Of a stretch of 64,000 nt of DNA, positions 10,489 to 45,627 are shown piece by piece (position 1 is the stretch's first letter; each line of letters begins with the position of its first letter). The notes below the pieces were generated by a model. That model was given only the letters and a program-made list of their open reading frames with translations. It did no database searches and was not told the DNA's origin. The DNA lies in assembly GCA_964565225.1 (NCBI GenBank), contig CAZMEL010000001.1, positions 1,424 through 65,423 on the forward strand, read 5' to 3'. The stretch comes from an uncultured Thermoanaerobaculia bacterium. GTDB taxonomy: Bacteria; Acidobacteriota; Thermoanaerobaculia; Multivoradales; J023. A program made the translations under genes and the position numbers.

Positions 10489-10563
10489 AGGAGGTCCCTT
10501 AGTTTGGACGACTGATACCCAAAGGGTACTCGACCAGCGGCCTCTAGTGAAGATGAATCGTTT

Positions 10564-10580
10564 CTGAACGAGCTGTTCAG
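10564..10580. promoter_or_regulatory. Inverted repeat CTGAAC-gagct-GTTCAG in the divergent region between the response-regulator gene and the MMPL gene. Candidate regulator binding site.
   Basis: Seen in the sequence. Arms are only 6 bp, so chance occurrence is possible. Confidence 0.2.
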
Positions 10581-10652
10581 GGTGTATTCAGGTGGACTTG
10601 CGTACAGTTTGCCCTGTCCATTAAGAATGAAAAGACGAATAGGTGCACTCCT

Positions 10653-13085
10653 GTGACGAAAGAGACTTCGACACGAAAAAAGCCGGACGCGGGACTGTCG
10701 GGTAGATTTTCCCGCTGGATCGTTGGCCATCCCGGCCTGGCTTTGATCTTGGCCTTGGCGATTGCCGTTCCTGCCGCCGTCGGACTTCCACGGATTACCT
10801 CCGACTTCACCCATCGGGGATTCTTCCGCGCTGAAGATCCCCTGCTGCTGGCCGTGGACCAGTTCGAGCGCCGCTTCGGCAACGACGATTCGGTGGTGCT
10901 CTTGATCCACAGCCCTTCCGGCATTTTCGATCGTGAATCGGTCGAGCTCCTGCACGAGCTGACCGAACGGATGTGGCGGGTACCCGAGGTGATCCGGGTG
11001 CAATCCCTGAGCAACTTCCGTTGGGTCCATGCCACGGGCGACGAAATCGAGATCGAGCCCTTGCTGCCCGAGCCCTTGGCGCCCGGAGATCAGCCCCTCA
11101 CCCCGGAGTTCCTGGCCCAACGTCGGCAAGTGGCCCTGGAGCACGAGCAGCTTCCCGGTTGGTTGGTGAGCGAGGACGGAAAGACCACGGCGATCTTCGC
11201 CTATATCCGGCCCGGCATCGACACCACTCCGGACATGCCACTGATCACCTCCACGGTGGAGGAGATCGCGGCCGAGGTGCACGGACGAGGTGGTGACCAC
11301 CAGCTCTACGTCACCGGTCGAGCGGCGGTGAATGCCACCTTCAAGCGCAGCATGCAGGCGGATATGCAGTCCCTGGTGCCCTTGGTCTTCTTGCTCACCC
11401 TGGTCTTCCTCGGCCTGGCCTTCCGCCGGGTGGGCGGAGTGCTGCAGCCCTTGATCGTCATTCTTTTCTCGGTGCTGGCGGCCATGGGCCTGATGGGTTG
11501 GCTCGATCTGAAGATGACCAATACCACCTCCATCCTGCCGCAGATTCTCATGGCCATCGTCGTGGCGGATTCGGTGCACGTGCTGAGCACCTTCTACGAG
11601 CGCCTCCGAGCCGGGGCCGAGCGTCGGCAGGCGGCAATCGACGCGCTGACCAAGAATGTGAGACCCACTCTACTGACCACCATCAGCACGGCCGTGGGTT
11701 TCTTCTCCTACGCGCCCTCGGCCATCTTGGCGGTGGCCAGTCTGGGAATCGCCGCCGGCCTCGGCACCATCTTGGCCTGGCTCTTCACCTATCTGGTCTT
11801 GGGGCCCATGCTAGCTGTGCTGCCCGTACGTCGCCCCAGAACCCGGGCGGACCGGGCCGAAGACGAAGGTGATGCCGGCGAGCCCGCGATGCCTCGCCGC
11901 CGGGCTTTTGTCACTTTCTTGGATCGTCGCTGCGTGCCCCTGGTGATCGCTGGCTTCGTGTTGGTGGTCGTGTCCTTCGTGCTCAGCCTGGGTAATACGG
12001 TGAATTCCGATCCCTTCGGGTATTTCAAGAAGGGCACCCCCGTGCGCACGGCCAACGATTTTGCCGAGGAGCATCTGGGCGGGGTCAACGGGGTCGAGAT
12101 CGTGATCGAAAGCGGCAGTCCGGAAGGGGTGAAGGACCCCGAGTTCCTGCGCCGGGTAGCGGCTTTCCAGGCCTGGGTGGACGAGCAGCCGGGGGTGAAC
12201 AAGACCGTTTCCCTGATCGACATCCTGCGCCAGACCCACCGCGCCCTGCACGGTGGCGGTGACGAGCACTATCGCCTGGCCGACACTCGGGAAGAGGTGG
12301 CCCAGGAGATTTTTCTCTACACCATGAGCCTGCCCCAGGGCATGGACATCAACGACCGCCTGACCGTGGAGAACGATGCCTTGCGCATGTCGGTGCTGTG
12401 GACCGTCCGCCGCTCCGAGGACTTCGTGCGGGAAGCGGCGCGACTACAGGCCAAAGCCAAGGAAATGGGCCTCGACACCGTCACCACCGGAAAGATGATG
12501 CTCTACCAGAGCATGAACGGCTATGTGGTGGATTCCTTCCTCACTTCCATCTCCATTGCCATGGTGCTGATCAGCCTGCTCTTGGTGGTGGCCCTGCGCT
12601 CGGTGTGGCTCGGCGCCTTGGCCCTGGTGGCCAACGTGGCGCCGCTCGTGGTGGGCGGCGCCTTGATTCGCCTCATGGGTCAACCCCTCGACGTGGGCAC
12701 AGTGATCGTGGCCAGCGTCTGTCTGGGCATCGCGGTGGACGACACCATCCACTTCTTGGCGGACTTCGAGCGCTGGCGGGCCAGGGGGTTGAAGGTGCGG
12801 GAAGCCACCCTGCAGGTCTTCTACCACACGGTGCCGGCCCTGCTGACCACGACGGTGATACTCGTCGCTTCCTTCGGCATCTTCGCCCTGGCCGACTTCA
12901 CGCCCAATCGCAACTTCGGAGTCTTGACCGCGGGCGTTCTCGGCACCGCCTTGATCATGGACATCACCCTGCTCCCGGCCATGCTCCTGGCCTTCGATCG
13001 GCGAGGTGAATCGAAAAAAGAAGCAGCCCGCACCGAGACGGATTTGGTGACCGGTGAGCCGGTCACGGAAGGGTCCCTATCGTGA
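10653..13085 (+). CDS. MMPL / RND-superfamily inner-membrane transporter (HpnN-like lipid exporter), 810 aa.
   Basis: Two 6-TM blocks, each followed by a large periplasmic loop, with a sterol-sensing-domain-like TM pattern. The track start is a GTG. Confidence 0.85.
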   Translation: MTKETSTRKKPDAGLSGRFSRWIVGHPGLALILALAIAVPAAVGLPRITSDFTHRGFFRAEDPLLLAVDQFERRFGNDDSVVLLIHSPSGIFDRESVELLHELTERMWRVPEVIRVQSLSNFRWVHATGDEIEIEPLLPEPLAPGDQPLTPEFLAQRRQVALEHEQLPGWLVSEDGKTTAIFAYIRPGIDTTPDMPLITSTVEEIAAEVHGRGGDHQLYVTGRAAVNATFKRSMQADMQSLVPLVFLLTLVFLGLAFRRVGGVLQPLIVILFSVLAAMGLMGWLDLKMTNTTSILPQILMAIVVADSVHVLSTFYERLRAGAERRQAAIDALTKNVRPTLLTTISTAVGFFSYAPSAILAVASLGIAAGLGTILAWLFTYLVLGPMLAVLPVRRPRTRADRAEDEGDAGEPAMPRRRAFVTFLDRRCVPLVIAGFVLVVVSFVLSLGNTVNSDPFGYFKKGTPVRTANDFAEEHLGGVNGVEIVIESGSPEGVKDPEFLRRVAAFQAWVDEQPGVNKTVSLIDILRQTHRALHGGGDEHYRLADTREEVAQEIFLYTMSLPQGMDINDRLTVENDALRMSVLWTVRRSEDFVREAARLQAKAKEMGLDTVTTGKMMLYQSMNGYVVDSFLTSISIAMVLISLLLVVALRSVWLGALALVANVAPLVVGGALIRLMGQPLDVGTVIVASVCLGIAVDDTIHFLADFERWRARGLKVREATLQVFYHTVPALLTTTVILVASFGIFALADFTPNRNFGVLTAGVLGTALIMDITLLPAMLLAFDRRGESKKEAARTETDLVTGEPVTEGSLS

Positions 13086-13810
13086 GCGTACAGACTCCTC
13101 ACAACGGCTCGCCGTCGGCCGGTCCCCGCTCGGGAGCCGCGTCCGTGGCCTGGCTGCGGCGCCAGTTCATGCATCCCACGGGGTGGGGCGGCCGCCTGGC
13201 CGGTTGGGTGATGGCGCGCAAGAACGCGGCGATCAATCGGAAGGCGGTGGAGGTCTTGAATCCCGGTCCCGGAGCTCGGGTTCTGGAAATCGGTTTCGGA
13301 CCCGGGGTGGCCATCGCGGAGCTCGTGAAGCGAGCGGCCCGGGTGGCCGGTATCGACCATTCCGAAACCATGGTGGAGGCCGCGGCCTGGCGCAATCGCG
13401 ACGCCATCCGCGCCGGTCGCTTGGAGCTGGTCCACGGCTCCGCGGACGAGCTGCCCTGGGAGGCCGGAGCGTTTACCCACGCCCTGATGGTGAATTGTCT
13501 CTATGCCTGGTCCGACCAGGCCGCCGAGATCCTGAAAGAGATTCAGCGGGTGCTCGACGACGACGACGGTCGGGTCTTGATCGGTGTGCGCATGACCACA
13601 GGAGAGGATGGTATGCGTTCTCCCGGGGCCGGGGCCGAAGCCATCGCCGGTATCGAGGTCGGATTGCGGCAGATCGGCTACGAAGAGGTGGAAGTCACCC
13701 GCCACGCCGTGGGGAGCCGTGAGATGTCGGCGATTTGCGCTTGGCGACGGGCGCGAGCCGGAGCCGGTGGGGAGAAGAGCCACATTGAAACCACAATCGA
13801 GTCGAGATGA
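13082..13810 (+). CDS. Class I SAM-dependent methyltransferase, 242 aa.
   Basis: Motif I VLEIGFGPG and a downstream acidic-loop pattern. A GTG at 13082 overlaps the MMPL stop (GTGA). Confidence 0.75.
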   Translation: MSVQTPHNGSPSAGPRSGAASVAWLRRQFMHPTGWGGRLAGWVMARKNAAINRKAVEVLNPGPGARVLEIGFGPGVAIAELVKRAARVAGIDHSETMVEAAAWRNRDAIRAGRLELVHGSADELPWEAGAFTHALMVNCLYAWSDQAAEILKEIQRVLDDDDGRVLIGVRMTTGEDGMRSPGAGAEAIAGIEVGLRQIGYEEVEVTRHAVGSREMSAICAWRRARAGAGGEKSHIETTIESR

Positions 13811-14730
13811 CGTTTTCTGTCGAGCCTAAATCCATGACCATACGGAGCCGAAGGGCCATGTTTATTCAGCCTTGTAATTCTCAGCCTCGAAATCGAACCC
13901 CCCGAGGTCGGCGATCCCGGACCGGACTCTCGATCTCGGCGGCCCTGCTCACCGCCCTTGCCCTGGTGCCGGTCACCGGTGCGGATACCCCGGGCATGGA
14001 AGTCGGAGCGGTCAAGGGTGATGCCGAGGCCCGCGGTCTGGCGGTGGCCGAGCAGATGCGCGAGATGCGCCGGGGTTTCGGCGGTGAGTCGTCCGCAATG
14101 GAGCTGGTGTTGATCAACGCTGCCGGTGACGAGGTGACGCGGCGTATGGCTTCCCGCACCCTGGAAATGGAAGACGACGGTGATCGCTCCCGGATCACGT
14201 TCAAGTGGCCGGCGGATGTGGAGGGCACGGAGCTGCTCACCTGGAGCCATCGCCAGGGGGCCGACGACCAATGGCTCTATCTGCCGGCGATCCAGCGCGT
14301 GAAGCGCATCAGCTCGCGCAACAAATCCGGCTCATTCATGGGCAGCGAGTTTTCCTACGAGGATTTGGGCAGCCAGGAGGTGGAGCAATTCACCTACCGC
14401 TATTTGCGGGAAGAGAAGCTCGGCGGCCGCGACACGGTGGTCATCGAGCGCTACCCGGAAGACAAGCTCAGCGGCTATGCCAAGCAAGTGGTGTGGTACG
14501 ACATGGAATACGGTCGGCCGGTGCAGATCCACTACTTCGATCGTAAGGAAGAGCTTCTGAAGATCTCTACCTTTGGCGATTTTCGCAAGCTCGGGCAGTG
14601 GTGGCGCGAGCATCGGATCGAAATGTCCAACGTCCAGACCCACAAGAGATCGGTGATCACTTGGCAGAGCCGCACCTTGGAAGAGGAGCACACGATCTTG
14701 GATTTCGAACGAACCGCTTTGGGTGATTGA
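13807..14730 (+). CDS. Periplasmic LolA-like outer-membrane lipoprotein-sorting / lipid-carrier protein. The start is uncertain.
   Basis: ATG 13807 overlaps the MTase TGA (ATGA), but the first ~20 codons are AT3-rich and look non-coding. An alternative start at ATG 13858 gives a signal peptide ...RTGLSISAALLTALALVPVTGA. The mature part resembles the LolA-like family typically paired with MMPL exporters. Confidence 0.65.
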   Translation: MTFSVEPKSMTIRSRRAMFIQPCNSQPRNRTPRGRRSRTGLSISAALLTALALVPVTGADTPGMEVGAVKGDAEARGLAVAEQMREMRRGFGGESSAMELVLINAAGDEVTRRMASRTLEMEDDGDRSRITFKWPADVEGTELLTWSHRQGADDQWLYLPAIQRVKRISSRNKSGSFMGSEFSYEDLGSQEVEQFTYRYLREEKLGGRDTVVIERYPEDKLSGYAKQVVWYDMEYGRPVQIHYFDRKEELLKISTFGDFRKLGQWWREHRIEMSNVQTHKRSVITWQSRTLEEEHTILDFERTALGD

Positions 14731-14755
14731 TTCCCTGAATCGAGCATAAACCGAC

Positions 14756-16078
14756 ATGAGCCTGTGTGATCAAGAACCGTGCCGCCCGGCAGGGCGGCGA
14801 TGGGGAATCCTCGCCTCTATCGCCCTACTGGGCGCTCAGGGAGCCGGATTCGCCTGCGGCGAGGAAGGGGCGACGCCCTTCTGGTCCGTCAAGGGAGAAA
14901 CGGCGCTCGAAGCCCGTGCTTTCAACGGCGACGGAGATTCCCGAACCGAAGATGTCGGTCTGGCCCTCACCGGTCGATTGGAGGCCAAGGGCTCGCGGGG
15001 TCCGTGGCGGAGCCAAGTGCGACTCTTCGGTCGTGCGGACGCCATGGACTCGGATCGGCGCCTCGCGGTGGTGGAGGAGGCGTGGGTGGAGCACCGTCGG
15101 GGACGTTGGCAGTTCCGTGCCGGCGTCGAGCTCTTCAACTGGTCGGCCACCGAGGCCTTCCACCCCGCGGACGTGGTCAACAGCCGAAATCTGGACAGCG
15201 ACTTGGAGAGCCTCGAGAAATTGGGTGAGCCCATCATCGGTACCATCGTGCGGATTCCGGCGGGTGAGGTCTCGGCCTTCTACCTGCCCGTGCGAGTGGA
15301 TCCCGAGTTCCCGTCCGCGAAGTCTCGCCTCAGCTTTGCGCCGGCCGGTTGGGAGGTGGAGGAGCCTCTGTGGATCGGCTGGGACGGTGAGGCGGACGAC
15401 GGCGATTTCGGCGATCAGTGGTTGGTGCGGGTGCTCCAGAGCCGCGGCCCGGCGGATTTCGACTTCCACGTTCTGCGTCACTTCGATCGAAGCCAGCCGG
15501 TTGTGCTGGTGGACCCGGAGCGGCAGAGTGTCCAGCCCGTCTTCCTGCCCGTGACTCAGATCGGCGGCACCGTCCAAGCGGTGCTCGGCTCCTGGGTGGG
15601 CAAGTTGGAGTGGTCTCATCGCACTTTCGAGTCCGGGTCATTGGCCCTGCCGGGATCGGGCACGGTGACAGTGGATCAGCCGGACCACCAGCAGGTGGCC
15701 ATGGGGGTGGAATACGGCACCAATACAGACGCGGGGGCCACGGGTACCTGGTTTCTGGAAGCCCAAGGGGTGCTCGGTGTGGACGAGGACGAACGAGCGA
15801 GTCTTTCCACTTTTCAGCGGGATGTCCTGGTAGGCTATCGGCACGATTGGAACGACATTCCCGGTCGACGCCTGACCGCCACCCTGATCGGCGACGCGGA
15901 GCGCGGCGACGAATGGCTCTTGAGCCTGGCCTACTTCCAACGCCTGGGAGGCGGCTGGGGTCTGGACGCCAATCTGCGCTTGATCGATGCCGAGCCGGAT
16001 GTGCCGTCGGATCCCGTAGGTCTCGAGCGTCTGGACGGTGATCATCAATTGCGTTTCGTGTTCCGCAGATATTTCTAG
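14756..16078 (+). CDS. Putative outer-membrane beta-barrel protein (DUF1302-like), 440 aa.
   Basis: Signal peptide WGILASIALLGAQGAGFA. Aromatic-rich with alternating-hydrophobic segments. C-terminus ...LRFVFRRYF ends in Phe, the OMP C-terminal signature. Its position after the MMPL and LolA-like genes fits a three-tier export conduit. Confidence 0.5.
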   Translation: MSLCDQEPCRPAGRRWGILASIALLGAQGAGFACGEEGATPFWSVKGETALEARAFNGDGDSRTEDVGLALTGRLEAKGSRGPWRSQVRLFGRADAMDSDRRLAVVEEAWVEHRRGRWQFRAGVELFNWSATEAFHPADVVNSRNLDSDLESLEKLGEPIIGTIVRIPAGEVSAFYLPVRVDPEFPSAKSRLSFAPAGWEVEEPLWIGWDGEADDGDFGDQWLVRVLQSRGPADFDFHVLRHFDRSQPVVLVDPERQSVQPVFLPVTQIGGTVQAVLGSWVGKLEWSHRTFESGSLALPGSGTVTVDQPDHQQVAMGVEYGTNTDAGATGTWFLEAQGVLGVDEDERASLSTFQRDVLVGYRHDWNDIPGRRLTATLIGDAERGDEWLLSLAYFQRLGGGWGLDANLRLIDAEPDVPSDPVGLERLDGDHQLRFVFRRYF

Positions 16079-16285
16079 ACCGATGTTCTTCAGGGAACAG
16101 ATATCCGGATCCGTGAACTTCGATTTGTCTGAAACAAATATAGCAAATCAGCAAACTTTTGAATATTGGATGTGCAATTGGTTTTCATTTTAAGGCTTTG
16201 AGCTTGCACTAGATCACTGGAATCTGAGAGAGGGCCCCCGAAAAACGGAGGCTCGAATCAGGCGGCAAAGGTAAGCGAGGCTCCC
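16079..16285 (+). promoter_or_regulatory. AT-rich promoter / leader region of the PKS-NRPS operon. Contains the direct repeat AGCAAA-tc-AGCAAA (16142..16155) and a TTGAAT box (16159..16164).
   Basis: A marked AT-rich island in an otherwise GC-rich sequence, immediately upstream of the first megasynthase gene. No confident -10 box was identified. Confidence 0.3.
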
Positions 16286-19200
16286 ATGAGTCCCCAAGCG
16301 TCTCCAGCTACGAATGAAGAGCCCTGGGCTGATCTGGACGAGCTCCAGAATTGGCTGATCGGTAATCTCGCGTCCCGCTTGGGCGTCGACCGCTCGAGAT
16401 TGGATCCGAGTGAGCGTTTCCATCGCTTCGGTTTGGATTCCGCTCGGGCAGGCGGTTTGGTTGCGGATCTGTCCGCCTACTTGGGACGCGCTCTGCCGCC
16501 GACCCTGGTGTGGGACTACCCGACGGTGGAGAAGCTCTGCGCCTTCCTGGTGCTCGGCGGGACAGAGCCCGAAGCGGGGCCGTCAGCGCCGCGGAGCCCC
16601 GTCGGCGCCACCATGGACATCGCGGTGGTGGGGTTGGCGTGTCGTTTTCCCTCGGCCGAGGACCCCGAGTCCTACTGGCGCCTGCTCGAGAACGGCGTGG
16701 ACGCCATCCGCGAGGTGCCGGGTGATCGCTGGGATCTGGAATCTCTCTACGATCCGGACTCCAAAGCCGCCGGCAAGATGTCCACTCGGTGGGGCGGATT
16801 CCTGGAGCGGGTGGACGCCTTCGATCCTCAATTCTTCGGCATCTCCCCCCGCGAGGCGCTCCAGATGGATCCCCAACAACGCCTCTTCCTGGAGCTGGCC
16901 TGGGAGGCCCTGGAGAACGCGGGCATCGCGGCCGATGGTCTGCGGGGAAGCCGCACCGGGGTTTTTGCAGGGGTGATGTGGAACGACTACGCCAAATTGC
17001 TCGGCGCCGGGCTGGACACTTTGAGCGAGCATTCCGCCACCGGCCAGGACACCAGCATCGTGCCGGCCCGGGTGTCCTACGTGCTCGGATTGGAAGGGCC
17101 GAGCCTGGCCATCAACACCGCCTGCTCGTCGTCCCTGGTGGCCGTCCACACCGCTTGCCAGAGCCTGCTGCGGGGCGATGCGGACATGGCCCTGGCCGGC
17201 GGCGTCCACCTGGTGGTGTCCCCCCATTCCACGGTGTCGATGACCAAATTCGGCGCCATGGCTCCGGACGGTCGCTCCAAGGCCTTCGACCACCGAGCCA
17301 ACGGCTACGTGCGCGGCGAGGGCGGTGGACTGGTGGTGCTCAAGCCTCTGCGCGACGCGGTGCGGGACGGGGAGCGAATCTGGGCCGTGGTGCGTGGCGG
17401 CGCGATCAACAACGACGGTTTCAGCAATGGCCTGACCGCGCCCAACCCCAAGGCCCAGGAAGCCATGCTGCGGGACGCCTACGACGGCTCCGGCATCGGG
17501 CGGAGCTCCGTTCATTATGTCGAGACCCACGGCACCGGCACTCTGCTCGGGGATCCCATCGAGGCCGGCGCCCTGGGCTCGGTGCTGGGCAGGGATCGCG
17601 ATTCTGAAGACTTCTTGCGCATCGGCTCGGTGAAGACCAATTTCGGTCACACCGAGGCCGCGGCCGGCGCCGCCGGCCTGATCAAGGTTCTGCTCTCCAT
17701 GGGGCGGCGGCAGCTTCCTCCGAGCCTGCACTTCGAGCGTCCGAATCCACATATTCCCTTCGACGCCATCGGCCTCAAGGTACAGACGGAGCTCGAGCCA
17801 TGGCCGCGACGGGCGGAGAAGGCCCTCGCCGGGGTCAGCTCCTTCGGTTTCGGCGGCACCAACTGCCATCTGGTGCTCGAAGCACCCGCGAGAGCTCGAC
17901 CTCTGCTGTTACCCCTCGCCGCGGCAGATCGTGCCAGCTTGGCGGCAGAGGCCCGGCGGGTGCGCGCCTTGCTCGATGGTTCGGACGAGCCCTTGGATGG
18001 ATTGATTCGATCGTTGCGCCTCCGCGCCCGTGGTCCGTATCGCACTGCGGTGGTGGTGCAAGACCGGCAGAGGGCCGTAGAGGATCTTGGCGGCCTCGTG
18101 GAATTCTTGACCTCGGAACCGGGTAGCGAGCGCCTGGGCCTGCCGGGGGTCGTGGAGCCGGGATTTGTCGACGTCGAGGGCAAAGGGCCGGTCTTCGTGG
18201 CCTCGGGGCAGGGTAGTGAGCATGCCGGAATGTGCAAGGAGCTGCTCCTCACGGAGCCCGTCTTCCGCGCCATGATGCAGCGCTGTGACGAGATCTATCG
18301 CCCCTTGGGCGGCTGGTCCCTGATCGAGGAGCTGCTGGAAGAGGAACCGAGATTTGCCGACACCGGCCGCAACCAACCCATGCTCTTCGCCATGCAGGTG
18401 GCTCTGGCCGAGCTGTGGCGGTCCTGGGGCGTGGAGCCGGCCGTGGTGGTGGGGCATAGCGCCGGTGAGCTGGCGTCCGCTTTCTTGTCCGGCTCGTTGG
18501 ATCTGCACCAAGCCCTGGAGGTAGCCCATCACCGGGGCCGCCTGACTCAACAGACCGCCGGCCTGGGCAAGATGGCCGTGCTCGACATGTCCGCGGACGA
18601 AGCACGTGAGGCCCTCGTCGGCCGGGAGGAGCTGCTCTCAGTGGCCGTGGACAACAGCCCAGGCACCTGTGTGGTCGCCGGGGATCCCGAGGCGTTGGCG
18701 CAGTGGACGGCCGAGCTGGCACGGGACCGGGGCCTCGAAGCCAACTACGTGAAGGTGGACTACGCCTCCCACTGTCCACAGATGGATTCCGTGCTCGACG
18801 AGCTGGAAGCGTCCGTGGCCCATGTCGTGCCGAAACCCCCCGAGTTGAAGGTGATCTCGACGGTAACCGCGGAGCCGATCGAGGATGCCGGTTTCGACGC
18901 TCGATACTGGCGCCTGAACTTGCGCCGGCCCGTGCGCTACGCCGACACTCTGAAGGCCCTCGTGACGTCGGGGCACAGCTGCTTCGTGGAGCTATCGGGC
19001 CATCCGGTGCTGGCCAAGCCCACGGCGCAAGCGGTGGCGGCTCACGGCGATCTCGAGCGGGCCGTCGTCGTGCCGTCCATGCGCCGGGATTGTGACGAGC
19101 AGGCGCTCCTGATGGAATCTCTCGGTCGCCTGTGGGTGAGTGGTCGCACCCTGCGATGGGACGCAGTCCATGGACCGGGGGAGGTGGCTTCGCCGGCCGA

Positions 19201-22200
19201 GCTCGCCCACTGGCCCGAGGTCGACCATCCGGAGCCGGTCTCCGACCCGGCCCCGCAATCGGAATCGGTCCCGGGCTCCGTCTTGGTGCTGCCCATTTCT
19301 GCCCGCAACGCCGAGGCGCTGGGTCAACTGGCCCGCCGCTACGCCGACGCTCTCGAAGCTGCTCCCCCGGCGTCCGTGGTGGACTGGGCCCACACCGCCG
19401 GAGTGCGGCGCAGTCACATGGAGGAACGGGCGGCCATCGTCTTCCGCCACGTGGCCGAGCTGCGCAGCGGCTTGAAGGCGGTGGCCGACAGCGCCGACCT
19501 GCCCGCTGTCGTGGCACGGGGACGCAAGCGCAATCGCGTGAAGGACGTGCCGGTCTTCGTCTTCTCCGGCCAGGGCAGCCAATGGCCGCGCATGACCCTG
19601 GATTTGTTGGCCGGTGAAACGGCTTTTGCCCGCGAGCTGCGCCGGGTAGACGCCGCCTGGCAGCCCGTGGCCGGCTGGTCGCTGATCGAAGAGCTGGAGC
19701 GTCCCGAGGGCGAGTCTCGCCTGGGAAACACCGAGGTGGCCCAGGGCACGATCTTCGCGGTGCAACTGGCCCTCGCCGCTCTGTGGCGGTCATGGGGCGT
19801 GGAGCCCGCCGCGGTGGTGGGGCACAGCATCGGTGAGGCGGCCGCCGCTCGAGTGGCCGGCATCCTCAGCCTGGAAGACGCCGTCACCCTCGTGTATCAC
19901 CGTGGACGAGCGATGGCCGCAAGCACCGGACGCGGCGGACGCATGGCCCAGGTGGAGCTTCCCTTGGCGGACGTGGAGCTCTATCTGGAAGAGGAGCCCA
20001 CGGTATCGCTGGCGGCGGTCAATGGCCCGAGCTCGGTAGTGATCGCGGGCGACGGCGAAGTCTTGGACGGAGTGGTGGATCGCCTAGATGCGGACGGCGT
20101 GACGGTGCGTCCTCTGCGGGTGGATTACGCCTTCCACAGCCACCACATGGATGCGGCGTTGCCCGAGCTGGAGCTGGCTCTGGCCGGCCTGGAGCCTCTG
20201 CCGGGCGAGATTCCCATGGTGTCCACCGTGACTGCCGAGCCCGTGGACGGCACCGCTCTGGACGCGGCCTATTGGTGTCGCAACGTGCGTTCCACGGTGC
20301 GCTTCTCCGAAGCGGTGGCCCGGTTGGCCGCGGACGGTGCCGATATCTTCGTGGAGGTGTCGCCCCATCCGGTGCTCGCCGCGAGCCTGGAGCAGATCCT
20401 CGAAGCTGCGGCCGCAACCGATGCCGGCCAGGAGGATCGGGTCTCGGCAGATCGGGCACTGGTGGTCTCGGGTCCTCGGCGCCCATGCGACCGTGCCAGC
20501 ACGGGCTCCCCGATGGACGGTCCGAGCCAGATGGCCGTGTCCCTGGCCCGGCTCTATGTCGCGGGCCTGGAGCCCCACTGGCCCGAGGTCAACCCCGCCG
20601 GTCGTGGCCATGTCGACCTGCCCACGTATCCGTGGCAGCGTCGGCGCTATTGGCTACCCGACGAGCTGCCGGCCGGTCGCTCCCGGCGCCTCGACCATCC
20701 CTGGCTCGGCGAGCATCTCACCGTGGCCACGGTGGAGCCGCGGCAGATCTGGCAGCGCCCGTTGGATCTGCCCTATCTGGCCGATCACCAGCTACGGCAA
20801 TCCGCCGTCTTTCCGGCCGCAGGCTATTTGTCGGCGGCCTGGAGCGCGGCCGAGGCGTCCGGCTGGACGGCGCTGGAGATCCACGACGTGTCCTTCACCC
20901 GCGCCCTCTCGTTGCCGGATGTGTCGCCGGGGTCCGAGGGCCTGCGCGCGGTGGTTCCTTCGCTGCAAACCATCTTGGAGGTGGAAGGTGCGTCCGCCGC
21001 CCGCTTTCGATGCGCTGCCGTAGAAGAAGCACCGGGGGACGAAAGTCCGGAGCCCGCCTTGCACGCGAGGGGACGCCTGCGGCGGAATCCGGCTCCTTCG
21101 CAGGTGGGTTCGGATCCCCGGCGGATGGTGGAGCTCGGCAGTCCGTCGAGCGGTGCAGAGCACTATGCGCGCATGGCTTCCCGCGGCCTGATCTACGGTC
21201 CGAGCTTTCGAGCGGTGGACGAGCTGTGGCTTGCGGATGGTAGAGCGGTGGGGCGCTTGACACCGACCCTCGAAGACACCGCCTACGCCTGCCATCCCAC
21301 TCTGCTCGACGGTCTCTTGCAGTTGTTGGAAGCGGCCCTTTCCGACGAGATCTCGCCCCCCGGCACCCTCTACCTGCCCGCCGCGGTGGAGCGTCTGCGG
21401 GCCTGGGAACAGGTACGCGGCGAGGTCTTCTGGGGTACCGCCGTGTTGCGGCCCGGCGCTGAACCGGGAGCCCGGCGGGTGGTAGGAGATCTGCAGCTCT
21501 TCGACGCCGACTACCGTCTGTTGTTGGAGATGCAGGGCGCGGCTTTCGAGCGGGTGGGTGAGGGTGTGGAGCCCGCTGCCGAAGGAAGTGGAGCCGATCT
21601 GGGCGTGCCCCTGTGGCAGACCCGCTGGGCTGTGGACGAGGCTGCGGTCTACGGCCCGTTGCCCGAGACCGAGGCCTTGCCGCCAGCCGCTCCCGACTCC
21701 TGGGTGGTGCTCACCGACAGCAAAGGGGTGGGTGAGAAGTTGATCGCGAGCCTACGGGCCGCCGGCCGGCGAGTCCTGGAGGTGGCGGCCGGCGATGCCT
21801 TCCTGCGCAGTCGTGAGCATCTGATGGTGGCTCCGCGGCGTCGGGAGCATCTCTTCTGGATGCTCGAAGAGGCGAGCCGCGGCGTGGACGGCCCCCTGGG
21901 CGTCGTCCACCTCTGGTCCCTGGACGCGGATCCTGGACCGGACGCTATGAGCGAGGATCTGAGCGCGGCCTACGACCTGGGCGTGATCTCGGCCCTGCAT
22001 TTGACTCGGGCCCTGGCCTCGGGGCGGGCGCCCGAGGTTCCCGGTGGACCGTTCTGGGTCACGGCCGGCGCCACGAGCCTCGGCAAGGGTCGACGGGATC
22101 CGGGCGGGGCCGGAGCCCTTTGGGGGCTGGCCCAGACCTGGGTGTTGGAGGAGCCGCGCCCCGGTTGTCGCTTGGTGGACTTGGACCTTGCGAATGCAGC

Positions 22201-24661
22201 GGGAACGGCCGATGCACGAGCAGCGGCCGACGCCCTGCTGCGGGAGATCGTGGGAGCCTTCACGGACTCGGCTACGGCTGCGCCGGCCTTGAGCCGAGCC
22301 GCGTGGAGCGAAGGTCGCCGCTTCACGCCCGAGCTGGCACCGGCCGTGCTGCGAGCCGGTGAGCCGGTGCTCGAAGCCCCCGGGGATCGGGCCTTCCGAC
22401 TGGGGCTGCGGCGGCCGGGCTCCCTGGACCACCTGCGATTCGAAGAAGTGGCGGAGCCGACGCCGGGTCCTGGCCAAGTGGTCATCGACGTGAAGGCCGC
22501 CGGCCTCAACTTCCGAGATGTGCTCAAGGCGCTGGACATGTACCCCGGCCTCGACGGTCCGCCCATGTTGGGTGACGAATGTGCCGGTGTCATCTCCGCT
22601 GTGGGAGAGGGGGTCACGGATCTGGCCCGGGGCGATTCGGTCATGGCCTTGGCGGATCATGCCCTGGCTGGTCGAGTCGTGGCCGAAGCGGACCTGGTCT
22701 TGCCCAAACCCGAATCCCTGAGCTTCGAGCAGGCCGCGGGGCAATTGCTCACCTACCTCACCGCCCACTACGCCTTCGACCATGTGGCCCGCTTGCAGCG
22801 CGGGGAGAAAGTCTTGATTCACGCCGCGGCCGGTGGTGTGGGCCTGGCGGCGGTGAACCTGGCACGTCGGTTGGACGCCGAGATCTTCGGGACCGCCGGC
22901 TCCGAGCACAAGCGCGACTACCTGCGCAGCGTGGGTGTGGCCCACGCCCTGGACTCCCGCTCCCTCAGCTTCGTGGACGGGATCCGCGAAGCTACCGGCG
23001 GCGAGGGCGTGGACGTGGTTCTCAACTCCCTGGCCGGGGAAGCCGTGCCCGCAAGCCTTTCGGTGTTGGGCAAATATGGTCGCTTCCTGGAGATCGGTAA
23101 GCGAGACATCTACGCCGATCGTCCTCTGGGCCTGGAGCCTTTCCAGCGCAATCTGACCTACGCGGCCATCGACGTGGATCCGGTGTTCCGGGAGCGTCCG
23201 GCCCTGGCCCGTCGACTGCTGGCAGAGGTGGTGGCCATGCTCGCCGGAGGTGAGGTGGCACCCCTACCCGTGGAAGTTTTTCCGGCGGCACAGGTGGTGG
23301 ATGCCTTCCACCACATGGCGCAAGCCAAGCACGTGGGCAAGATCGTGATCGCCACCACCGACCGGCAAACGCCGATCATGGTGCCGCGTGCCCGTCGCTC
23401 CACGCGCTCGGGCACCTGGCTGATCACCGGCGGCTTCGGCGGCCTCGGCCTGGCCGTTGCTTCCCGCCTGGCCGACCGCGGGGCCCAACGTCTGGCCCTT
23501 GCCGGTCGTCGCGGTGCCCCGGACGAAGTCCGTCCCGATCTCGACGCCCTGCGCGCTCGCGGTGTCCGAGTGGAGGAGATCCGGATGGATGTGACCCGGG
23601 CCGACGAGGTGGACGAGGTAGTGCGTGCTCTGGCCGCTGGCGACGAGCCCTTGCGGGGCGTGATCCACGCTGCCGGCGTGCTCGACGACGGAGTGCTCTC
23701 CCAGCTGGATCGTTCGCGTTTCTTCGGGCCGGCGGCGGTGAAGATGGCTGGCGCCTGGAATCTGCACCGGGCCACTCGGGACCTGTCCCTGGATGCCTTC
23801 GTTCTGTTCTCGTCCGTCACCTCGGTTCTGGGCTCCCCGGGTCAGGCCAACTACGCCGCCGCGAATGCCGGGCTCGACAGCCTGGCCTCTTATCGCCGGG
23901 CCGCCGGCCTGCCTGCCGTGTCTGTGCAATGGGGACCGTGGAACGAGGTTGGCATGGCCCAGCGCTCGGTGCTGCGTGGTGAGCGCCTGGCCCAGAACGG
24001 CCTCGCCGGTATGGATCCCGCCGACGCATTGGACGCCCTGGAGAGGGTTCTCGACGGCGACGCAGAGCGGATCATGGCCGCCCACTTCGACGCCTCCGCC
24101 TGGCTGCGTGCACATCCGTCCGCTGCAGGTCCGTTCCTGCGGTCCATGGCGAACGGTACCGACGTCTCGGCAGTAGAGGCGGCAGGGCCGGTGGAGCGCT
24201 TGCGTGATGCTGCGCCAGAGGAGCGTCCGGCCATCCTCCTCGATCATCTGCGATCCAGAGTGGTGGAGGTGCTGCGCCTGGGAGACCTGTCGGTCGATGC
24301 GTCCACCCCTTTGCGCGCTCTGGGTCTCGACTCCTTGATGGGGGTGGAGCTGCGCAATCGGCTGGAAGCGGACCTCCAGGTTCGCCTCTCTGCCGGCCTG
24401 GTGTGGAACTACCCTACCTTGGAGCTGATGGTGCCCCACCTGCTGTCGCGCCTGGAGGCGGCGGGTGAGCTCACCGCCGAGAAGGGCACCGCAGAATCCA
24501 CCGGGGCGACGAGCGAGCGAACCGAGCTGCCTCGGGTCTCGAAGCCGGCGGCGGAGTCGTTTCCCGACCCGGGCCATGCCATTGCCGAAGCCGTAGAAGC
24601 CATGTCCGAGGAAGACGCCGAGGCCCGCCTGTTGGCGGAGCTCGAAGCCCTCGAGCTGTGA
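16286..24661 (+). CDS. Type I PKS with loading and first extension module: ACP(L)-KS-AT(L)-AT-DH-ER-KR-ACP, 2791 aa.
   Basis: N-terminal carrier [11 protein letters not shown] (Ser52). KS with [22 protein letters not shown]. Two consecutive linker+AT units, GHSAGE near 18452 with YASH, and GHSIGE near 19820 with YAFH. DH HPWLGEHxxxxP near 20700. [16 protein letters not shown] near 22820. [14 protein letters not shown] near 23420. [14 protein letters not shown] near 24330. C-terminal docking helix. Confidence 0.95.
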
Positions 24662-24686
24662 GATCTGGGTGGGGAAGGAGAGAGCC

Positions 24687-27600
24687 ATGAGCACAGATCG
24701 AGGAAACGGCAAGGATTCGGCGGCCAAACGGGCGCTGATCGCGGTACAGACCCTGCGCACCAAATTGGATGCCGTGCAGCGGGCCCAGAAAGAGCCCATC
24801 GCGGTGGTGGGCATGGGTTGTCGTTTTCCGGGCGGTGCCGAGAGCTTGGATGCCTACTGGCAATTGCTTCGGGACGGTGTGGACGGCATCGTGGAGATTC
24901 CGCCCGACCGTTGGGACGTCGACGACTACTACCACACCGACGAGGCCAAGGCGGGCAAGATGAATACCCGCTGGGGCGGATTCCTGCGCTCGTCGATCCG
25001 GGAGTTCGACGCCGACTTCTTCGGCATCTCGCGCCTGGAAGCGGAGCATATGGATCCCCAACAACGGCTGCTCCTGGAGGTGGCCTGGGAGACCTTGGAG
25101 CATGCGGGTGAAGCGCCGGAAGGCGTGGCCGGCAGCCGTACCGGGGTCTTTGTGGGTGTGACCAGCCACAGCGACGAGTACTGGCAACGCTTCATCGATC
25201 CGGCACGGATCGGTGCCTTTTCGGGCACCGGCACCTCCCACAGCGTGATCTCGGGTCGCCTCTCCTACTTCTTCGACTTCCACGGCCCGAGTGTGGCCGT
25301 CGATACCGCCTGCTCCTCCTCGTTGGTGGCCGTGCACCAGGCGTGTATGAGCCTGCGGGCCGGGGAATGTGACGCCGCCCTGGCGGGGGGCGTCAACCTG
25401 ATCCTGGAGCCCCACTTCACCATCGCCATGTCGCGCATCGGTCTGATGGCGTCCGACGGTCGGTGCAAGACCTTCGACCACCGGGCCGACGGCTACGTGC
25501 GCGGCGAAGGTTGCGGTCTGGTGATGTTGCGTCGCCTGTCGGACGCCCTGGAGCGCGGGGATCGCATCCTGGCCACGATCCGCGGCTCCGCCGTGGTGCA
25601 GGACGGCAAGACCAACGGCCTGTCGGCTCCCAACGGCCTGTCCCAACAAAAGGTCTTGCGCGCCGCCCTGGAGCAAGCGGAGCTGTCCGCCGAGGATGTG
25701 GGCTACATCGAGGCCCACGGTACGGGCACGGCCCTGGGGGATCCCATCGAGATCGAGGCCCTCGACGCGGTCTACGGCGAAGGCTGTGGATCCGGTCGGC
25801 GATGTACCGTGGGCGCGGTCAAATCGAATGTAGGGCACCTGGAGGGAGCGGCCGGAATCGCCGGTTTGATCAAAGCGGTGCTCGTCCTGGACCGCGCCGT
25901 GATTCCCAAGAACCTGCACTTCGAAGAGCTCAATCCCCACATCGAGCTGGACCACAGCCCCCTCGATCTGGCCACGTCCACCGAGCCCTGGCCTCGCACC
26001 CGAGCCCCCCGTCACGTCGGCGTCAGCTCCTTCGGATGGTCGGGCACCAACGCCCACGTGGTGTTGGGAGAGGCCCCGGAGACGGCGCCGCGACCGGATG
26101 CCCGAGATCGTCCCGCGCTCCTCTGCCTGTCCGCGGCGAGCCCGGCGGCCCTCACCATCGCCGCCGAGCGCCTGGGCGACTTCTTGGCCGGGGAATCGGG
26201 CGAGGAATCGGCTGCTTCTGCACCCGAGCTTCGGGACGTGGCCCACACCCTCACCCGAGGCCGTGCCGTCTTTCCCCATCGCCTGGCTCTGGCCGCCGAA
26301 ACCCCGGCCGAGGCCGCGGCGGAGCTGCGTGCCTTCGTGGAGCACGGGCGACCCGGGCGCAGCTCGGCCGTCGGCCCTCGGGAGAGCGGAGCCACGGGGG
26401 AAGAGCCCGTGGTCTTCGTCTTCTCGGGTCAGGGCAGCCAGTGGGCCGGCATGGCCGCGGACCTCTACGAGCAGCAGCCGATCTTCCGCGAGGCCCTGGA
26501 TCGGGTGGACGCGGCCTTGGTGGCCGAGGGCGTGACCTCTCCCAAGGCCGCCATCGCAGAGGACGAGGCATCCGGCCGCATGCAGCGCACGGACGTGGCT
26601 CAACCGACGATTTTCGCGGTGCAGGTGGCCTTGGCCGAGCTCTACGCCTCCCTGGGGGTGAAGCCGGCTGCGGTGGTGGGCCACAGTGTGGGCGAGATCG
26701 CGGCCGCGCTGGTGGCCGGCGCCTTGGATCTGAAAGGCGCGGCGCGGGTGGTTCGCCATCGCTCGCGCCTGATGCAGAGCCGCACGGGTCTGGGACGCAT
26801 GGCCTTGGTGGCCGTCGGTGCCGACCGGGTGGCCGAGGTCTTGGCCGAGCTCGATACCTTTGCCGGCCGGGTGGTGGCCGCGGCCTTCAACGCGCCCGAC
26901 GCCACGGTGCTGGCCGGCGACGAAGAGGCCCTGGAGGCGGCCTTGGCCCGCTTTGCCGAGCTCGGCGTGGAGGCCAAGAGCCTTCGCGTGGACTACGCCT
27001 TCCACAGCCCGCAGATGGATCCTGTGCTCGACGAGCTGGAAACGTCCCTGGCCGGTCTGCAGAGCCGTGAGCCGGTGGTGCCCATGGTGTCCACGGTGAC
27101 CGCCGCGCCGGTGGCCGAGGGAGAGCTAGGAGCCGGCTACTGGCGCCGCAATGTGCGGCTGCCCGTTCGTTTCGCCGACGCCCTGGAACGCCTGCTGGCC
27201 GACGGCCGTCGCACCTTCTTGGAGGTGGGACCCCATCCGGTGCTGTCCATGGGTATGGGGGACCAGCTGCGCGAGCGGGGAGAGAAGGGTGTCGTCGCCG
27301 GGTCCCTACGCCGGGGTGAGCCCGGGCTGCGCAGTCTGTGGATCGGCTTGGCGGCCCTGTGGACCGCCGGTGTGCCCGTGGACCGGCACGCGGTGAACGG
27401 CACGGGCGGACGCACCGTGGATCTGCCCACCTACCCTTGGCAGCGCTCCACCCATTGGCTGGAGCGCCCGGCTCTCGGTTTCGGTGCATCCGCGTCGAGC
27501 ACGGCCGGCTTGTTGGCGCCTCCTGCCGACCATCCGCTCCTGGGCGTGCATGTGGAGGTGGCGGCGGATCGTCCTACCCACATTTTCGAGGCGCAGCTGC

Positions 27601-31388: not shown

Positions 31389-31416
31389 AACCGAGACATA
31401 GACCGGAATTTCCAGA

Positions 31417-37400: not shown

Positions 37401-37878
37401 GGAGTATCTGATGGTGCGCGACGAGCCCGAGACCGTGGTGTCGCGGGTGGTGGGTGGTCGCTGGCCCGCCTTTGCCCACGGCTCGCCTTTGCTCGACCTG
37501 CCGTCCGCAGCGATGGACCGGGCCCCCGAGGACACGGACATGCCCTTGGTGGATCGCCTGCGCGGTTGGCTCGCAGATGCCCTGCAATGTGCCGCCGCCG
37601 AGGTGGACCTGAACCGTTCCTTGGTGAGCCTGGGTCTGGACTCTCTGATGGCCGTGGAGCTGAAGAACCGCGTGTTGGCTTCCACGGGCGTGGACATTCC
37701 TCTGTCCAAGCTGCTGTTGGCCCCGAGCGCAACGGCCCTGGCCGAGCAGATCCGGGAGAAGGCCGGCATTACGGCTCCCGTTCACGAATCCGTCTCTGAT
37801 GCACATTCCGAAATCGAACCCCGAACCCAACCCGAGGCTTCACCTTCGACCGAAGCCTGGGAGGAGCTGACCCTATGA
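31417..37878 (+). CDS. Type I PKS module KS-AT-DH-ER-KR-ACP (fully reducing), 2153 aa.
   Basis: [89 protein letters not shown]. Its stop overlaps the ATG of the next gene (ATGA at 37875..37878). Confidence 0.95.
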
Positions 37879-42224: not shown

Positions 42225-42360
42225 ACAACCCTTCACGGGCCGCCGTGCTGTGTGAGCACCGGGCTCCGGAGTCGAGCTTCGGATGCAATTCGGAGCCCAG
42301 CTCTTTGGATCGATGCGACGAATTCCTGTCCTTCTTGGTAACTCGCAGGAGATTTTCGAT

Positions 42361-45300: not shown

Positions 45301-45525
45301 CTGGCCACTCAATTGGTCAACAGCCTGCAGAAAACTTTCAAGGTGGAGCTCGATGTACCCACCTTTATGCGCTCCGCCACCGTGGCCGAGCTGTCCGAGA
45401 CCTTGGTCCGTCTGCAAGACGAGGAAGAGACGGCCCAAGCCACGGCGGTGCTCGATCGCTTGGAGCAGATGAGTGAAGACGAGATCGCGGCTCTTCTGGC
45501 ACAGACCGAGATGGCCGAAGCTTGA
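42361..45525 (+). CDS. Type I PKS minimal module KS-AT-ACP (no reductive domains), 1054 aa. The AT has atypical motifs.
   Basis: Start taken at ATG 42361 (AGGAG 9 nt upstream). The track ATG at 42283 adds 26 AT3-rich codons that look non-coding. KS TACSTSL, HGTATPLGDPIE, NVGHLETAAG. AT FLFPGGGSQY, GHSNGE, VGAHS. ACP FFELGGTSLLATQL. Confidence 0.9.
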   Translation: MTAQTPTDQNSTDRNVSVDDLHPDSIAIVGMACRFPGAADVEAFWRLLVEGREAITFFSDDELKEAGVDPVHFERDNYVKAGATLDDVESFDAGYFDYPAREAVTLDPQQRIFLEVAQTALESSCHAPETFDGLIGVFAGGAQNSYYARNLAADPMLLTTPEGFQAHLGNDKDYLATRVAYKLNLSGPAVTVQTACSTSLAAVHLAAQSLLAGECDLALAGGVSVKVPHRVGYFHQDGMPFSADGHCRPFDATASGTIFGSGAGAVVLRRLEDALRDGDPIDAVLRGSAMNNDGSLKIGFTAPSIDGQSKVIAEALAVARVDPRTIGHVEAHGTATPLGDPIEVDALIRSFDVDEKGFCALGSVKSNVGHLETAAGVAGLIKSVLMLSRRVLVPSLHFESPNPEIPFDESPFFVSRETRPWDRDGAPRRAGVSSFGIGGTNVHTVLEEAPAVAEDPAAEAGPQVLTLSAKTPTALDALTAALAEQLAADEELDLAAVAQTTRVGRRSLPCRRILVAENKAEAVDALKNLDPKRVFTFQAPRSGRSAAFLFPGGGSQYVDMGRQLYAREPVFRQTLDHCFELLRPLMDVDPHQVLYPSADHRDQAVAQLKETPIALPILFSAEYALARLLISWGIEPAAMIGHSNGEFVAATLAGVFTLEQALDVVARRAALMTRLPKGSMLSLPLPVEEVREMVGDDYSIAAVNSPVSCVVSGTVEQIDALEEKLASRELDTRRLHIAVGAHSKMADGIVDDLVAIVAEHDLNEPTIPFVSNVTGDWIQPGEATDPAYWGRHLRHTVRFQEAIGRLMEDPTRILIEVGPGQALGSLARQNLTTGENRTLLATTRQRHDEEVSDSVLLAENVAKVWLVGGAVDWRAVYEEQGPRRARVVTYPFERRRYWIEAQKSDAGSGDLAARMQTWMEAEGKVLDQEKSGDDRAGLLVAYVAPRDDMEERVADVWRQFFGIDQVGVHDNFFELGGTSLLATQLVNSLQKTFKVELDVPTFMRSATVAELSETLVRLQDEEETAQATAVLDRLEQMSEDEIAALLAQTEMAEA

Positions 45526-45627
45526 TCGCTCGCTCGATCCGAAGACAGACCGAAAACCTTTCGCACGATTCGATGAACCCTTATCCATCCCAGTCGGAGC
45601 TGATGGACCGAAACCGAGGAACAGATC

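Follow-up and report, generated by a model that had tools for sequence, protein, structure and literature searches.

A pump, LolA-like carrier and outer-membrane barrel as a candidate export route for the product of a neighbouring lipothiazole gene cluster in a Thermoanaerobaculia bacterium

Introduction

In the aryl-polyene (APE) cluster, a LolA-like chaperone and an RND transporter have been proposed to place the lipid product in the outer membrane (PMC8253772). A comparable arrangement is present in a 64,000-nt stretch of DNA from an uncultured Thermoanaerobaculia bacterium (the window, by which we mean this whole stretch). Here an MMPL/RND-superfamily pump, a LolA-like carrier and a candidate outer-membrane beta-barrel (together, the trio) are encoded beside a polyketide synthase/non-ribosomal peptide synthetase (PKS/NRPS) cluster, with a gene for an S-adenosylmethionine (SAM)-dependent methyltransferase (MT) between pump and carrier. 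From the comparisons below we consider, at a probability of about 60%, that the trio is the export or outer-membrane localisation route of the cluster product.

The APE system was a legitimate choice of comparison in a preliminary description of this locus (PMC8253772). As with ApeL (LolA-like) and ApeM (RND) of the APE and flexirubin clusters, the carrier and the RND protein of the window are encoded inside a lipid-type biosynthetic cluster. On the other hand, the APE outer-membrane acceptor is ApeN, a DUF3261 LolB-like lipoprotein, and the acceptor in the window would be an 18-strand barrel; DUF3261 had no match in the four window proteins (Pfam). The window MT is lineage-specific, in contrast to ApeB, the APE methyltransferase, which belongs to the core genes of its cluster. 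APE chemistry yields a polyene of the type II fatty acid synthase-like kind, and that of the window a predicted lipothiazole by modular PKS/NRPS.

AmeABCD of Castellaniella defragrans, which confers monoterpene tolerance (PMC6394551), and the DUF1302/DUF1329/COG4447/HAE3-RND cassettes of Pseudomonas, Shewanella and Kangiella also bring together a barrel, a LolA-superfamily protein and an HAE3-like RND protein. In these cassettes the DUF1302, DUF1329, BNR and RND genes are cofit (bioRxiv 10.1101/072470), and AlphaFold-Multimer predicts a DUF1302-DUF1329 complex with an ipTM of 0.84 (PMC13499233). AmeABCD-type cassettes share with the window family a connection to hydrophobic compounds, and in both the barrel and the LolA-like protein form the tightest pair, the pump being encoded elsewhere at times. 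The Pseudomonas DUF1302/DUF1329 pair, for example, is split from its pump, as in 14 of the loci described below. The window differs in that its barrel falls below the DUF1302 model, its carrier belongs to PF17131 and not to DUF1329, and its clade is embedded in a PKS/NRPS cluster, whereas the cassettes lie in catabolic islands. No match to the COG4447/BNR (Ycf48-like) propeller was found in the four proteins or the scanned open reading frames (ORFs) of the window.

In Thalassolituus oleivorans, TOL_3187, an MMPL protein fused to a LolA-like one, adjoins the predicted porin TOL_3188 (PMC6304351). The same three functions stand side by side in the window, the likeness being one of functions. Because TOL_3187 fuses the MMPL and LolA-like parts, a physical interaction between pump and carrier may be argued. 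The Thalassolituus proteins differ in context: their host degrades hydrocarbons and induces them on long-chain alkanes, and uptake or porin delivery was discussed for them (PMC6304351).

The Lpt (LptB2FGC-LptA-LptDE) and Lol systems run, like the proposed trio, from an inner-membrane extractor through a periplasmic carrier to an outer-membrane acceptor or barrel. Unlike the trio, they are ATP-driven, use unrelated barrel families and are essential housekeeping systems. In mycobacteria, MmpL7 (for phthiocerol dimycocerosate, PDIM) and MmpL8 (for sulfolipid) are encoded beside PKS genes, and the placement of lipid in the outer envelope depends on them. They share with the window pump the genetic coupling of an MMPL-family RND protein to polyketide-lipid synthesis, but belong to the HAE2 family, serve a mycomembrane and have no LolA-like carrier or beta-barrel partner.

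HpnN, an HAE3 RND protein that moves lipid from the inner membrane towards the outer one, is the closest solved pump by sequence. Unlike the window pump, it works without dedicated periplasmic or outer-membrane partners (PMC6394551), and the window pump scores far below the HpnN cut-offs. A search of the literature available to us found no description of this trio in a PKS/NRPS cluster.

Results

One trio clade accompanies one family of PKS/NRPS clusters

The four genes were found on the plus strand within 10653-16078, where the preliminary description had placed them (Table 1). The cluster that follows them begins with ACP-KS-AT-AT-DH-ER-KR-ACP and two fully reducing KS-AT-DH-ER-KR-ACP modules (Pfam). 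Its middle consists of a stand-alone TubC_N-Cy-A-Ox-PCP protein and KS-AT-ACP, then C-A-PCP, C and C-A-PCP, and its end of a reductase (NAD_binding_4), a thioesterase, an acyl-CoA dehydrogenase and two secreted beta-propellers. Pfam scans revealed no ABC or MFS exporter of the cluster's own.

The product had previously been called a lipothiazoline. The oxidase domain of the NRPS module corresponds to Pfam Nitroreductase, and because the module carries this domain, the predicted heterocycle is a thiazole and not a thiazoline.

Table 1. Positions of the trio, the methyltransferase gene and neighbouring features in the window
Feature	Coordinates	Strand	Basis or remark
OmpR-type response regulator, divergent, 164 nt upstream of the MMPL gene	9829-10488	minus	Pfam (regulator and kinase)
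Divergent intergenic region, likely promoter of the four-gene unit	10489..10652	.	TGAAC-N5-GTTCA inverted repeat; promoter role putative
MMPL/RND-superfamily inner-membrane transporter, 810 aa, HAE3/HpnN-like	10653..13085	+	Pfam MMPL, NCBIfam, hydropathy
Class I SAM-dependent methyltransferase (MT), longest ORF 242 aa	13082..13810	+	Methyltransf_25; starts GTG 13082, GTG 13145 or ATG 13169
Periplasmic LolA-like (PF17131 / TP_0789-like) hydrophobic-ligand carrier, 290 aa	13858..14730	+	PF17131; type I signal peptide, no lipobox
Outer-membrane Occ/AlgE-like beta-barrel (predicted), 440 aa, distant DUF1302 relative	14756..16078	+	Barrel from about residue 43
Conserved 32-nt block AGGCTTTGAGCTTGCACTAGATCACTGGAATC in the 207-nt AT-rich barrel-PKS1 spacer	16193..16224	+	Identical in L087
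PKS/NRPS cluster	16286..56051	+	Pfam; orthologous clusters beside the trio in L093/L089, L005, L171 and L087
Secreted beta-propeller, FG-GAP/UnbV_ASPIC	57398-59611	+	Pfam, signal peptide
Secreted beta-propeller, SGL/NHL	59733-61769	+	Pfam, signal peptide

A reverse search for linked loci was seeded with the Cy-A-Ox module. In a Thermoanaerobaculia metagenome-assembled genome (MAG), two loci on one contig (L093 and L089) gave the order NHL - FG-GAP - LolA - barrel (46%) - MMPL - 6 nt - PKS1 (44%) - PKS, continued by Cy-A-Ox-PCP (50%) - PKS4 (57%) - NRPS2 (58%) - C - NRPS3. Apart from the missing MT, this amounts to the window cluster with its trio beside it. The propeller orthologues (FG-GAP, 57% identity; NHL, 51%) stand directly upstream of LolA-barrel-MMPL-PKS1 (L093 4812-9062). 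The two secreted propellers may correspond to the COG4447 propeller found in DUF1302/DUF1329/RND cassettes.

The trio was linked to related genes in further lineages. A Competibacteraceae MAG (L005) contained LolA - barrel - MMPL - 43 nt - FAAL-ACP - Cy-A-Ox-PCP (48% over 1438 aa) - KS (66% to PKS4), and L171 contained LolA (69%) - barrel (57%) - PKS1 N-terminus (62%). In L088 the order was NRPS C-terminus with an R domain - GMC oxidoreductase - TE - GMC oxidoreductase - LolA - barrel - MMPL - short LolA-like - PPTase. The last two genes of this series (L088 11170-12642) encode a second, short LolA-like protein (177 aa) and a 4'-phosphopantetheinyl transferase.

A related FAAL - Cy-A-Ox - PKS cluster, L090, had exporter genes of another type upstream of its loading module (383-6395), the position of the trio in L005. 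They encode an ABC protein with two nucleotide-binding domains, two ABC-2 permeases and an HlyD-like adaptor. We interpreted this exchange, on gene position, as a functional substitution.

In a neighbour-joining tree of concatenated MMPL, barrel and LolA-like sequences (54 loci, 1353 columns, 200 bootstraps), the window, L004, L005, L088 and L093 formed one clade in 200/200 bootstraps. L004 was its sole member without a cluster within 10 kb. The pairing of this cluster family with this trio clade recurred in five or six independent lineages of at least two phyla, the linked loci including the two MAGs and two metagenome contigs. It spanned three gene orders, with gaps of 6-46 nt in the relatives. 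Co-occurrence with the cluster was found for the trio in L093/L089, L005, L171, L088 and L085/L087, and for the MT in L085 only.

From this distribution, the trio clade of the window appears as a component of one cluster family. The recurrence of one cluster family with one trio clade, in three orders and at least two phyla, gave comparative support to the earlier suggestion of a dedicated export route for the neighbouring cluster.

The conserved unit across bacteria

The trio was surveyed by tblastn in 80 GTDB species-representative loci and 77 JGI metagenome loci with flanks to 10 kb, and the fractions for neighbouring genes count only loci with flanking DNA sufficient to judge. The LolA-like gene was directly upstream of the barrel gene in 127/132 loci (73/75 GTDB and 54/57 JGI). 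The MMPL gene was directly downstream of it in 71/102 (48/65 GTDB and 23/37 JGI), LolA - barrel - MMPL being the prevailing order. A LolA-barrel pair without MMPL within 10 kb occurred in 14 GTDB loci, mainly of Bacteriovoracaceae. None of the JGI loci exceeded 45% identity.

The hosts belonged to Myxococcota, Bdellovibrionota, Acidobacteriota, Elusimicrobiota and a few Proteobacteria, and the barrel family was common in the predatory Bacteriovoracaceae and Bdellovibrionales. The only recurrent extra neighbour was a TetR regulator gene, upstream in 14 loci. PKS/NRPS genes lay within 10 kb of the trio in 4/80 GTDB and 0/77 JGI loci.

By gene order, the conserved unit is the trio of pump, carrier and barrel, with the MT excluded. 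Across the family as a whole, the trio is a generic module that for the most part occurs independently of any biosynthetic cluster. Because most loci had no PKS/NRPS genes nearby and 14 had a TetR gene, the ancestral role of the trio was presumably not cluster-specific.

The trio closest to that of the window was L004 (MMPL 73%, LolA 74% and barrel 61%). This locus is rich in insertion sequences, with an IS200-type Y1 transposase gene at 8671-9102, further transposases and a reverse transcriptase. About 5 kb off, on the other strand, it has a second, paralogous trio of MMPL, LolA-like and true DUF1302 genes (16164-20989).

Another lipid-producing neighbour of the trio was seen in Acanthopleuribacter/Holophagae (L029 14428-15627, also L025). 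There TetR-LolA-barrel-MMPL was followed by a fusion of a FeeM-like N-acyl amino acid synthase with a cyclic-nucleotide-binding domain, and by KS and AT genes further downstream.

The barrel

AlphaFold2, given a 60-sequence alignment, returned a confident all-beta model of the 440-aa protein (pLDDT 91, pTM 0.85), and the C-terminal R438 and F440 were nearly invariant in the family. As modelled, the protein is an Occ/AlgE-like outer-membrane beta-barrel of 18 strands. With a signal peptide, a closed antiparallel barrel and a C-terminal aromatic residue (beta-signal), it has the marks of the Occ/OprD and AlgE-like channels. The preliminary description had proposed such a barrel and named a soluble periplasmic protein as the alternative. 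The prediction agreed with the former, and the latter was not borne out.

Assignment of the barrel to DUF1302, a family named earlier for an HMM search, did not hold. The 440-aa protein had no match in Pfam or NCBIfam, and the DUF1302 model PF06980 did not match it at E ≤ 1. Weak DUF1302 matches were obtained in 8/60 barrel relatives (best 1e-6), and hhalign against a true DUF1302 protein gave E 2e-4 at a probability of 47%. By these profile comparisons the family would be a distant DUF1302 relative at most. A search of the PDB with the barrel profile gave nothing at E ≤ 1, and there is no solved structure.

A word-indexed search yielded 119 barrel homologues. A full profile scan of 1.84 billion representatives yielded 2870 matches at E ≤ 1e-3 and 750 at E ≤ 1e-30. 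One homologue, P0366 (629 aa), carries at its N-terminus a peptidoglycan-binding domain of the OmpA family, in keeping with an outer-membrane location. A search of the long family members for natural LolA-barrel fusions turned up OmpA, DUF11 and unassigned extensions, but no LolA domain.

The LolA-like carrier

The longest ORF of the LolA-like gene, 307 aa, matched PF17131 at 4e-53 (180 bits vs a cut-off of 30) over profile positions 3-182 of 184, which confirmed the proposed LolA-like identity over the whole domain. In the PDB it matched 3bk5, a Vibrio structure (1e-65), 9tp6 (3e-35) and 4z48 (5e-26). The match to DUF1329 (PF07044), the other family named earlier for an HMM search, was marginal: 24.3 bits vs a cut-off of 23.1, with residues 122-170 on profile positions 137-188 of 368 only.

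The h-region of its signal peptide, LSISAALLTALALVPVTGA, as called without a dedicated signal-peptide predictor, contains no Cys. A lipobox-like motif was present in just 2/65 LolA-like homologues, and almost all LolA-like and barrel homologues had type I signal peptides.

The MMPL pump

The 810-aa protein matched Pfam MMPL (PF03176) in two stretches at 2e-26 (93.2 bits vs a cut-off of 20.5), above the gathering threshold and as expected from its earlier designation as an MMPL RND pump. The Sterol-sensing and Patched SSD models of Pfam also matched.

NCBIfam ranked HAE3 first, then MMPL and HpnN, all far under the curated cut-offs. The best subfamily, HAE3 TIGR00921, gave 5e-50 and 170 bits (cut-off 351.9), and the HpnN models TIGR03480 and NF052374 gave 117 vs 752 bits (8.5e-34) and 65 vs 1100 bits, respectively. 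The nearest sequence relative in the PDB was HpnN 5khn (8e-9).

In a hydropathy scan, transmembrane segment (TM) 1 (27-45) and TM7 (428-446) were each followed by a loop (46-238 and 447-629, respectively) and then by a TM cluster (239-375 and 630-780). This agrees with the 12-TM RND pattern, in which large periplasmic loops, here of about 180-190 aa each, follow TM1 and TM7. Asp residues were seen in VVADSVH (~302, TM4-like) and AVDDTIH (696-697, TM10-like), in line with the acidic TM4 and TM10 residues that serve proton coupling in RND proteins, the TM numbers being assigned by position and not from a structure. The pump is presumably proton-driven. Its dN/dS against L085 was 0.10.

The methyltransferase

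The MT matched Methyltransf_25 (1e-15, 58.5 bits vs a cut-off of 27) and also Methyltransf_11 (Pfam), with motif I (GxGxG) as VLEIGFGPG. NCBIfam gave generic sub-threshold matches only (best, the DVU_1556 family, 58 vs 155 bits). The PDB search likewise gave matches to the SAM-binding core only (RebM, MitM, CFA-synthase-like) and no substrate-specific family.

Homologues of the MT are about 200-220 aa long and begin near MHPTGWGG (ATG 13169). The sole close one was P0120, at 82% identity, in the sister lineage L085. The others were generic UbiE-like small methyltransferases of unrelated taxa, with ≤56% identity over part of the length, and no orthologous group sharing a conserved gene context emerged from the search. 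By tblastn, an MT homologue was present anywhere in the locus in 0/80 GTDB and 0/77 JGI cases, and none was present in the orthologous cluster neighbourhood of L093. Between the window and L085, dN/dS was 0.29 for the MT vs 0.10-0.17 for the neighbouring genes.

The MT is predicted to be cytoplasmic, because it has no signal peptide. The preliminary description had suggested that it could methylate the product during or just before export; for methylation during export this location leaves no basis. Its role would be at most that of a tailoring enzyme, which is a possibility. By its distribution and substitution rates, the MT appears as a lineage-specific addition under purifying selection, outside the transport machine.

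The MT may also be a passenger at a permissive intergenic site, with no role in cluster or transporter; we put this somewhat short of an even chance. Such a passenger would be missing from all other trio loci and from the L093 neighbourhood, as was found, and in L004 the MMPL-LolA gap holds the IS200 transposase at exactly the MT position. The generic, partial homologues from unrelated taxa, the dN/dS above that of the neighbours and the lack of a specific NCBIfam or PDB assignment point the same way. On the other hand, the gene is in frame at 82% identity in the sister species, its junction to the MMPL stop codon is conserved, and it is under purifying selection. Moreover, no in-line methyltransferase domain is among the Pfam matches listed for the window PKS/NRPS, so that a stand-alone tailoring MT is plausible.

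Gene junctions and regulatory elements

Two start/stop overlaps had been noted earlier, together with strict co-translation of the first three genes. Both GTGA (13082-13085, MMPL/MT) and ATGA (13807-13810, MT/LolA) are literally in the sequence. The junctions were compared with those of L085 and L087, a relative from another metagenome sample with 83-87% nucleotide identity, in which the order MMPL - MT - LolA - barrel - PKS1 is kept.

The GTGA overlap was kept in L085, and the 21 codons up to 13145 were without indel, at a dN/dS of 0.19. GTG 13082 is on this comparison a plausible MT start; the source gene callers put the start at GTG 13145. ATG 13807 was lost in L085, in a stretch disrupted by indels. 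ATG 13858, which has GGAG before it and is the start used by the gene caller, was conserved. Since ATG 13807 was lost and ATG 13858 conserved, the LolA-like gene most likely starts at 13858, 47 nt past the MT stop codon. The GTGA overlap is thus credible, ATGA 13807 is probably no real start, and strict co-translation was an over-reading, since that start is not conserved.

The gaps within the unit were -4 to +83 nt (MMPL-MT), +47 nt (MT-LolA), 25 nt (LolA-barrel) and 207 nt (barrel-PKS1). The four-gene operon proposed earlier can be kept as an operon-like unit of four, but the conserved unit has three genes, the MT being absent elsewhere. The G+C content at third codon positions of the MT and trio genes was 0.76-0.82 vs 0.74-0.87 in the cluster. 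Because there was no compositional break, nothing indicated a recent foreign origin of these genes.

The 32-nt block in the barrel-PKS1 spacer was identical in L087, at about 84% nucleotide identity overall, and the remaining spacer had diverged. It occurs once in the window, and its conservation makes it a probable promoter or operator for the PKS/NRPS genes. No terminator-like site was detected within the 207-nt spacer. In L087 the LolA-barrel spacer is filled by a short tandem-like repeat, GAGCTGATTTGTAGGTA (230-290), which the window does not have.

At the other end of the unit, no consensus sigma-70 site was found in the 10489..10652 spacer. The promoter/terminator scan gave 1 promoter-like site, where chance would give 1.1, and detected no terminator downstream of the barrel gene. 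The spacer contains an inverted repeat, TGAAC-gagct-GTTCA, and nearby TTCAGG repeats (10545-10600), which may bind the regulator. The preliminary description had noted an OmpR-type two-component pair beside the transporter genes. In the relatives this pair had no conserved place beside either trio or cluster, and it was rejected as part of the unit.

Antisense and alternative-frame ORFs of the region had no family matches, and an Rfam search of the region gave no match, neither riboswitch nor small RNA. Outside the unit, a phage-tail-sheath-like protein (Pfam Phage_sheath_1 and Phage_sheath_1C) is encoded at 2506-4080 on the minus strand, upstream of ABC importer genes. The protein is possibly part of a contractile injection system or a prophage remnant.

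Discussion

In the route that we propose, clusters of this family would assemble a fatty-acyl chain by reducing PKS modules or a FAAL, add a thiazole derived from Cys, a PKS extension and a short peptide, and release the product reductively. The MMPL/RND pump would take this amphiphilic fatty-acyl-thiazolyl peptide out of the inner membrane and pass it to the soluble periplasmic LolA-like carrier. The carrier would then dock on the barrel and deliver the lipid into or across the outer membrane. The trio sub-clade may have been inherited or transferred together with one biosynthetic cluster family.

This route starts from the gene identities, the barrel fold, the conservation of the trio, the clade-level linkage to the cluster and the absence of the MT elsewhere. 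The direction of transport, the substrate, the physical hand-off and the co-regulation are the parts that it would add.

Several observations weigh against an export role tied to the cluster. Most trio loci (about 150/157) have no PKS/NRPS genes within 10 kb, 14 have their own TetR gene, and the nearest relative, L004, has no cluster within that distance. The 207-nt spacer with its conserved block before PKS1 suggests a separate promoter. The tree is distance-based, with host taxonomy for two clade members (of different phyla), and the barrel family is known from sequence and models alone. In addition, the direction of transport is taken from the usual behaviour of RND proteins, and uptake has been proposed for relatives in Pseudomonas and Thalassolituus.

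The first of these observations would suit a general envelope-lipid or hydrophobe efflux or homeostasis module, AmeABCD-like, that merely lies next to the cluster with no relation to its substrate. The 4/80 GTDB and 0/77 JGI loci with PKS/NRPS genes, the upstream TetR genes, the spread of the family in Bacteriovoracaceae and Bdellovibrionales, the clusterless L004 and the spacer element all favour such a module. We nevertheless regard it as unlikely for the window clade. The same cluster family stands beside the same trio clade in five or six lineages of at least two phyla, in three gene orders and with gaps of 6-46 nt in relatives, and chance adjacency would not follow the trio phylogeny.

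Import of hydrophobic substrates (fatty acids, esters or alkanes), possibly as precursors, appears very improbable. Characterised RND, MMPL and HpnN transporters move their substrates outward, the window cluster has three reducing PKS modules to make an acyl chain of its own, and in L090 the trio is replaced by an ABC/HlyD system of the exporter type. In favour of import, mutation of DUF1302/DUF1329 genes in Pseudomonas putida causes a defect on fatty esters and on Tween 20 (bioRxiv 10.1101/2020.07.04.188060), and the Thalassolituus MMPL-LolA fusion and the adjoining porin are induced on C28 alkane (PMC6304351). A cluster-associated trio might also serve self-protection, clearing a membrane-active product, or product that has come back into the cell, from the membranes of the producer without being an obligatory route of secretion or outer-membrane localisation; this, like the homeostasis module, we consider unlikely. 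The exporter in the trio position of L090 consists of a DrrA-like ABC protein and an HlyD adaptor. DrrA-like ABC/HlyD systems often act in resistance. Relatives of the AmeABCD type also give tolerance to hydrophobic toxins (PMC6394551). The soluble LolA-like carrier, obligately paired with the barrel (127/132 loci), looks more like part of a delivery pathway than of simple efflux, although the sequence data are compatible with either role.

With export or outer-membrane localisation of the cluster product as the preferred reading, the trio marks a likely route for lipopeptide-like products over the Gram-negative outer membrane. The outer-membrane export step is usually overlooked in the heterologous expression of such clusters. 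The barrel family merits a family definition of its own: it comprises about 2900 representative clusters and has neither a Pfam model nor a solved structure.

A wider interpretation is tentative, and we hold it possible rather than probable. The trio may form a secretion machine, so far undescribed, that carries lipidic natural products across the envelope of diderm bacteria. In it the two propellers may take the place of COG4447, and one of its clades would move horizontally between phyla with a lipothiazole cluster. The MT would then add a cytoplasmic O- or N-methylation that changes the exported product. Gene sets that join a barrel of the DUF1302/DUF1329 type to a LolA-like protein and an RND pump occur widely and have clear mutant phenotypes, and the branch tied to the cluster offers a candidate substrate. 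If the reading is true, this would be the first natural substrate for the whole 'dark' DUF1302/DUF1329/RND-type family.

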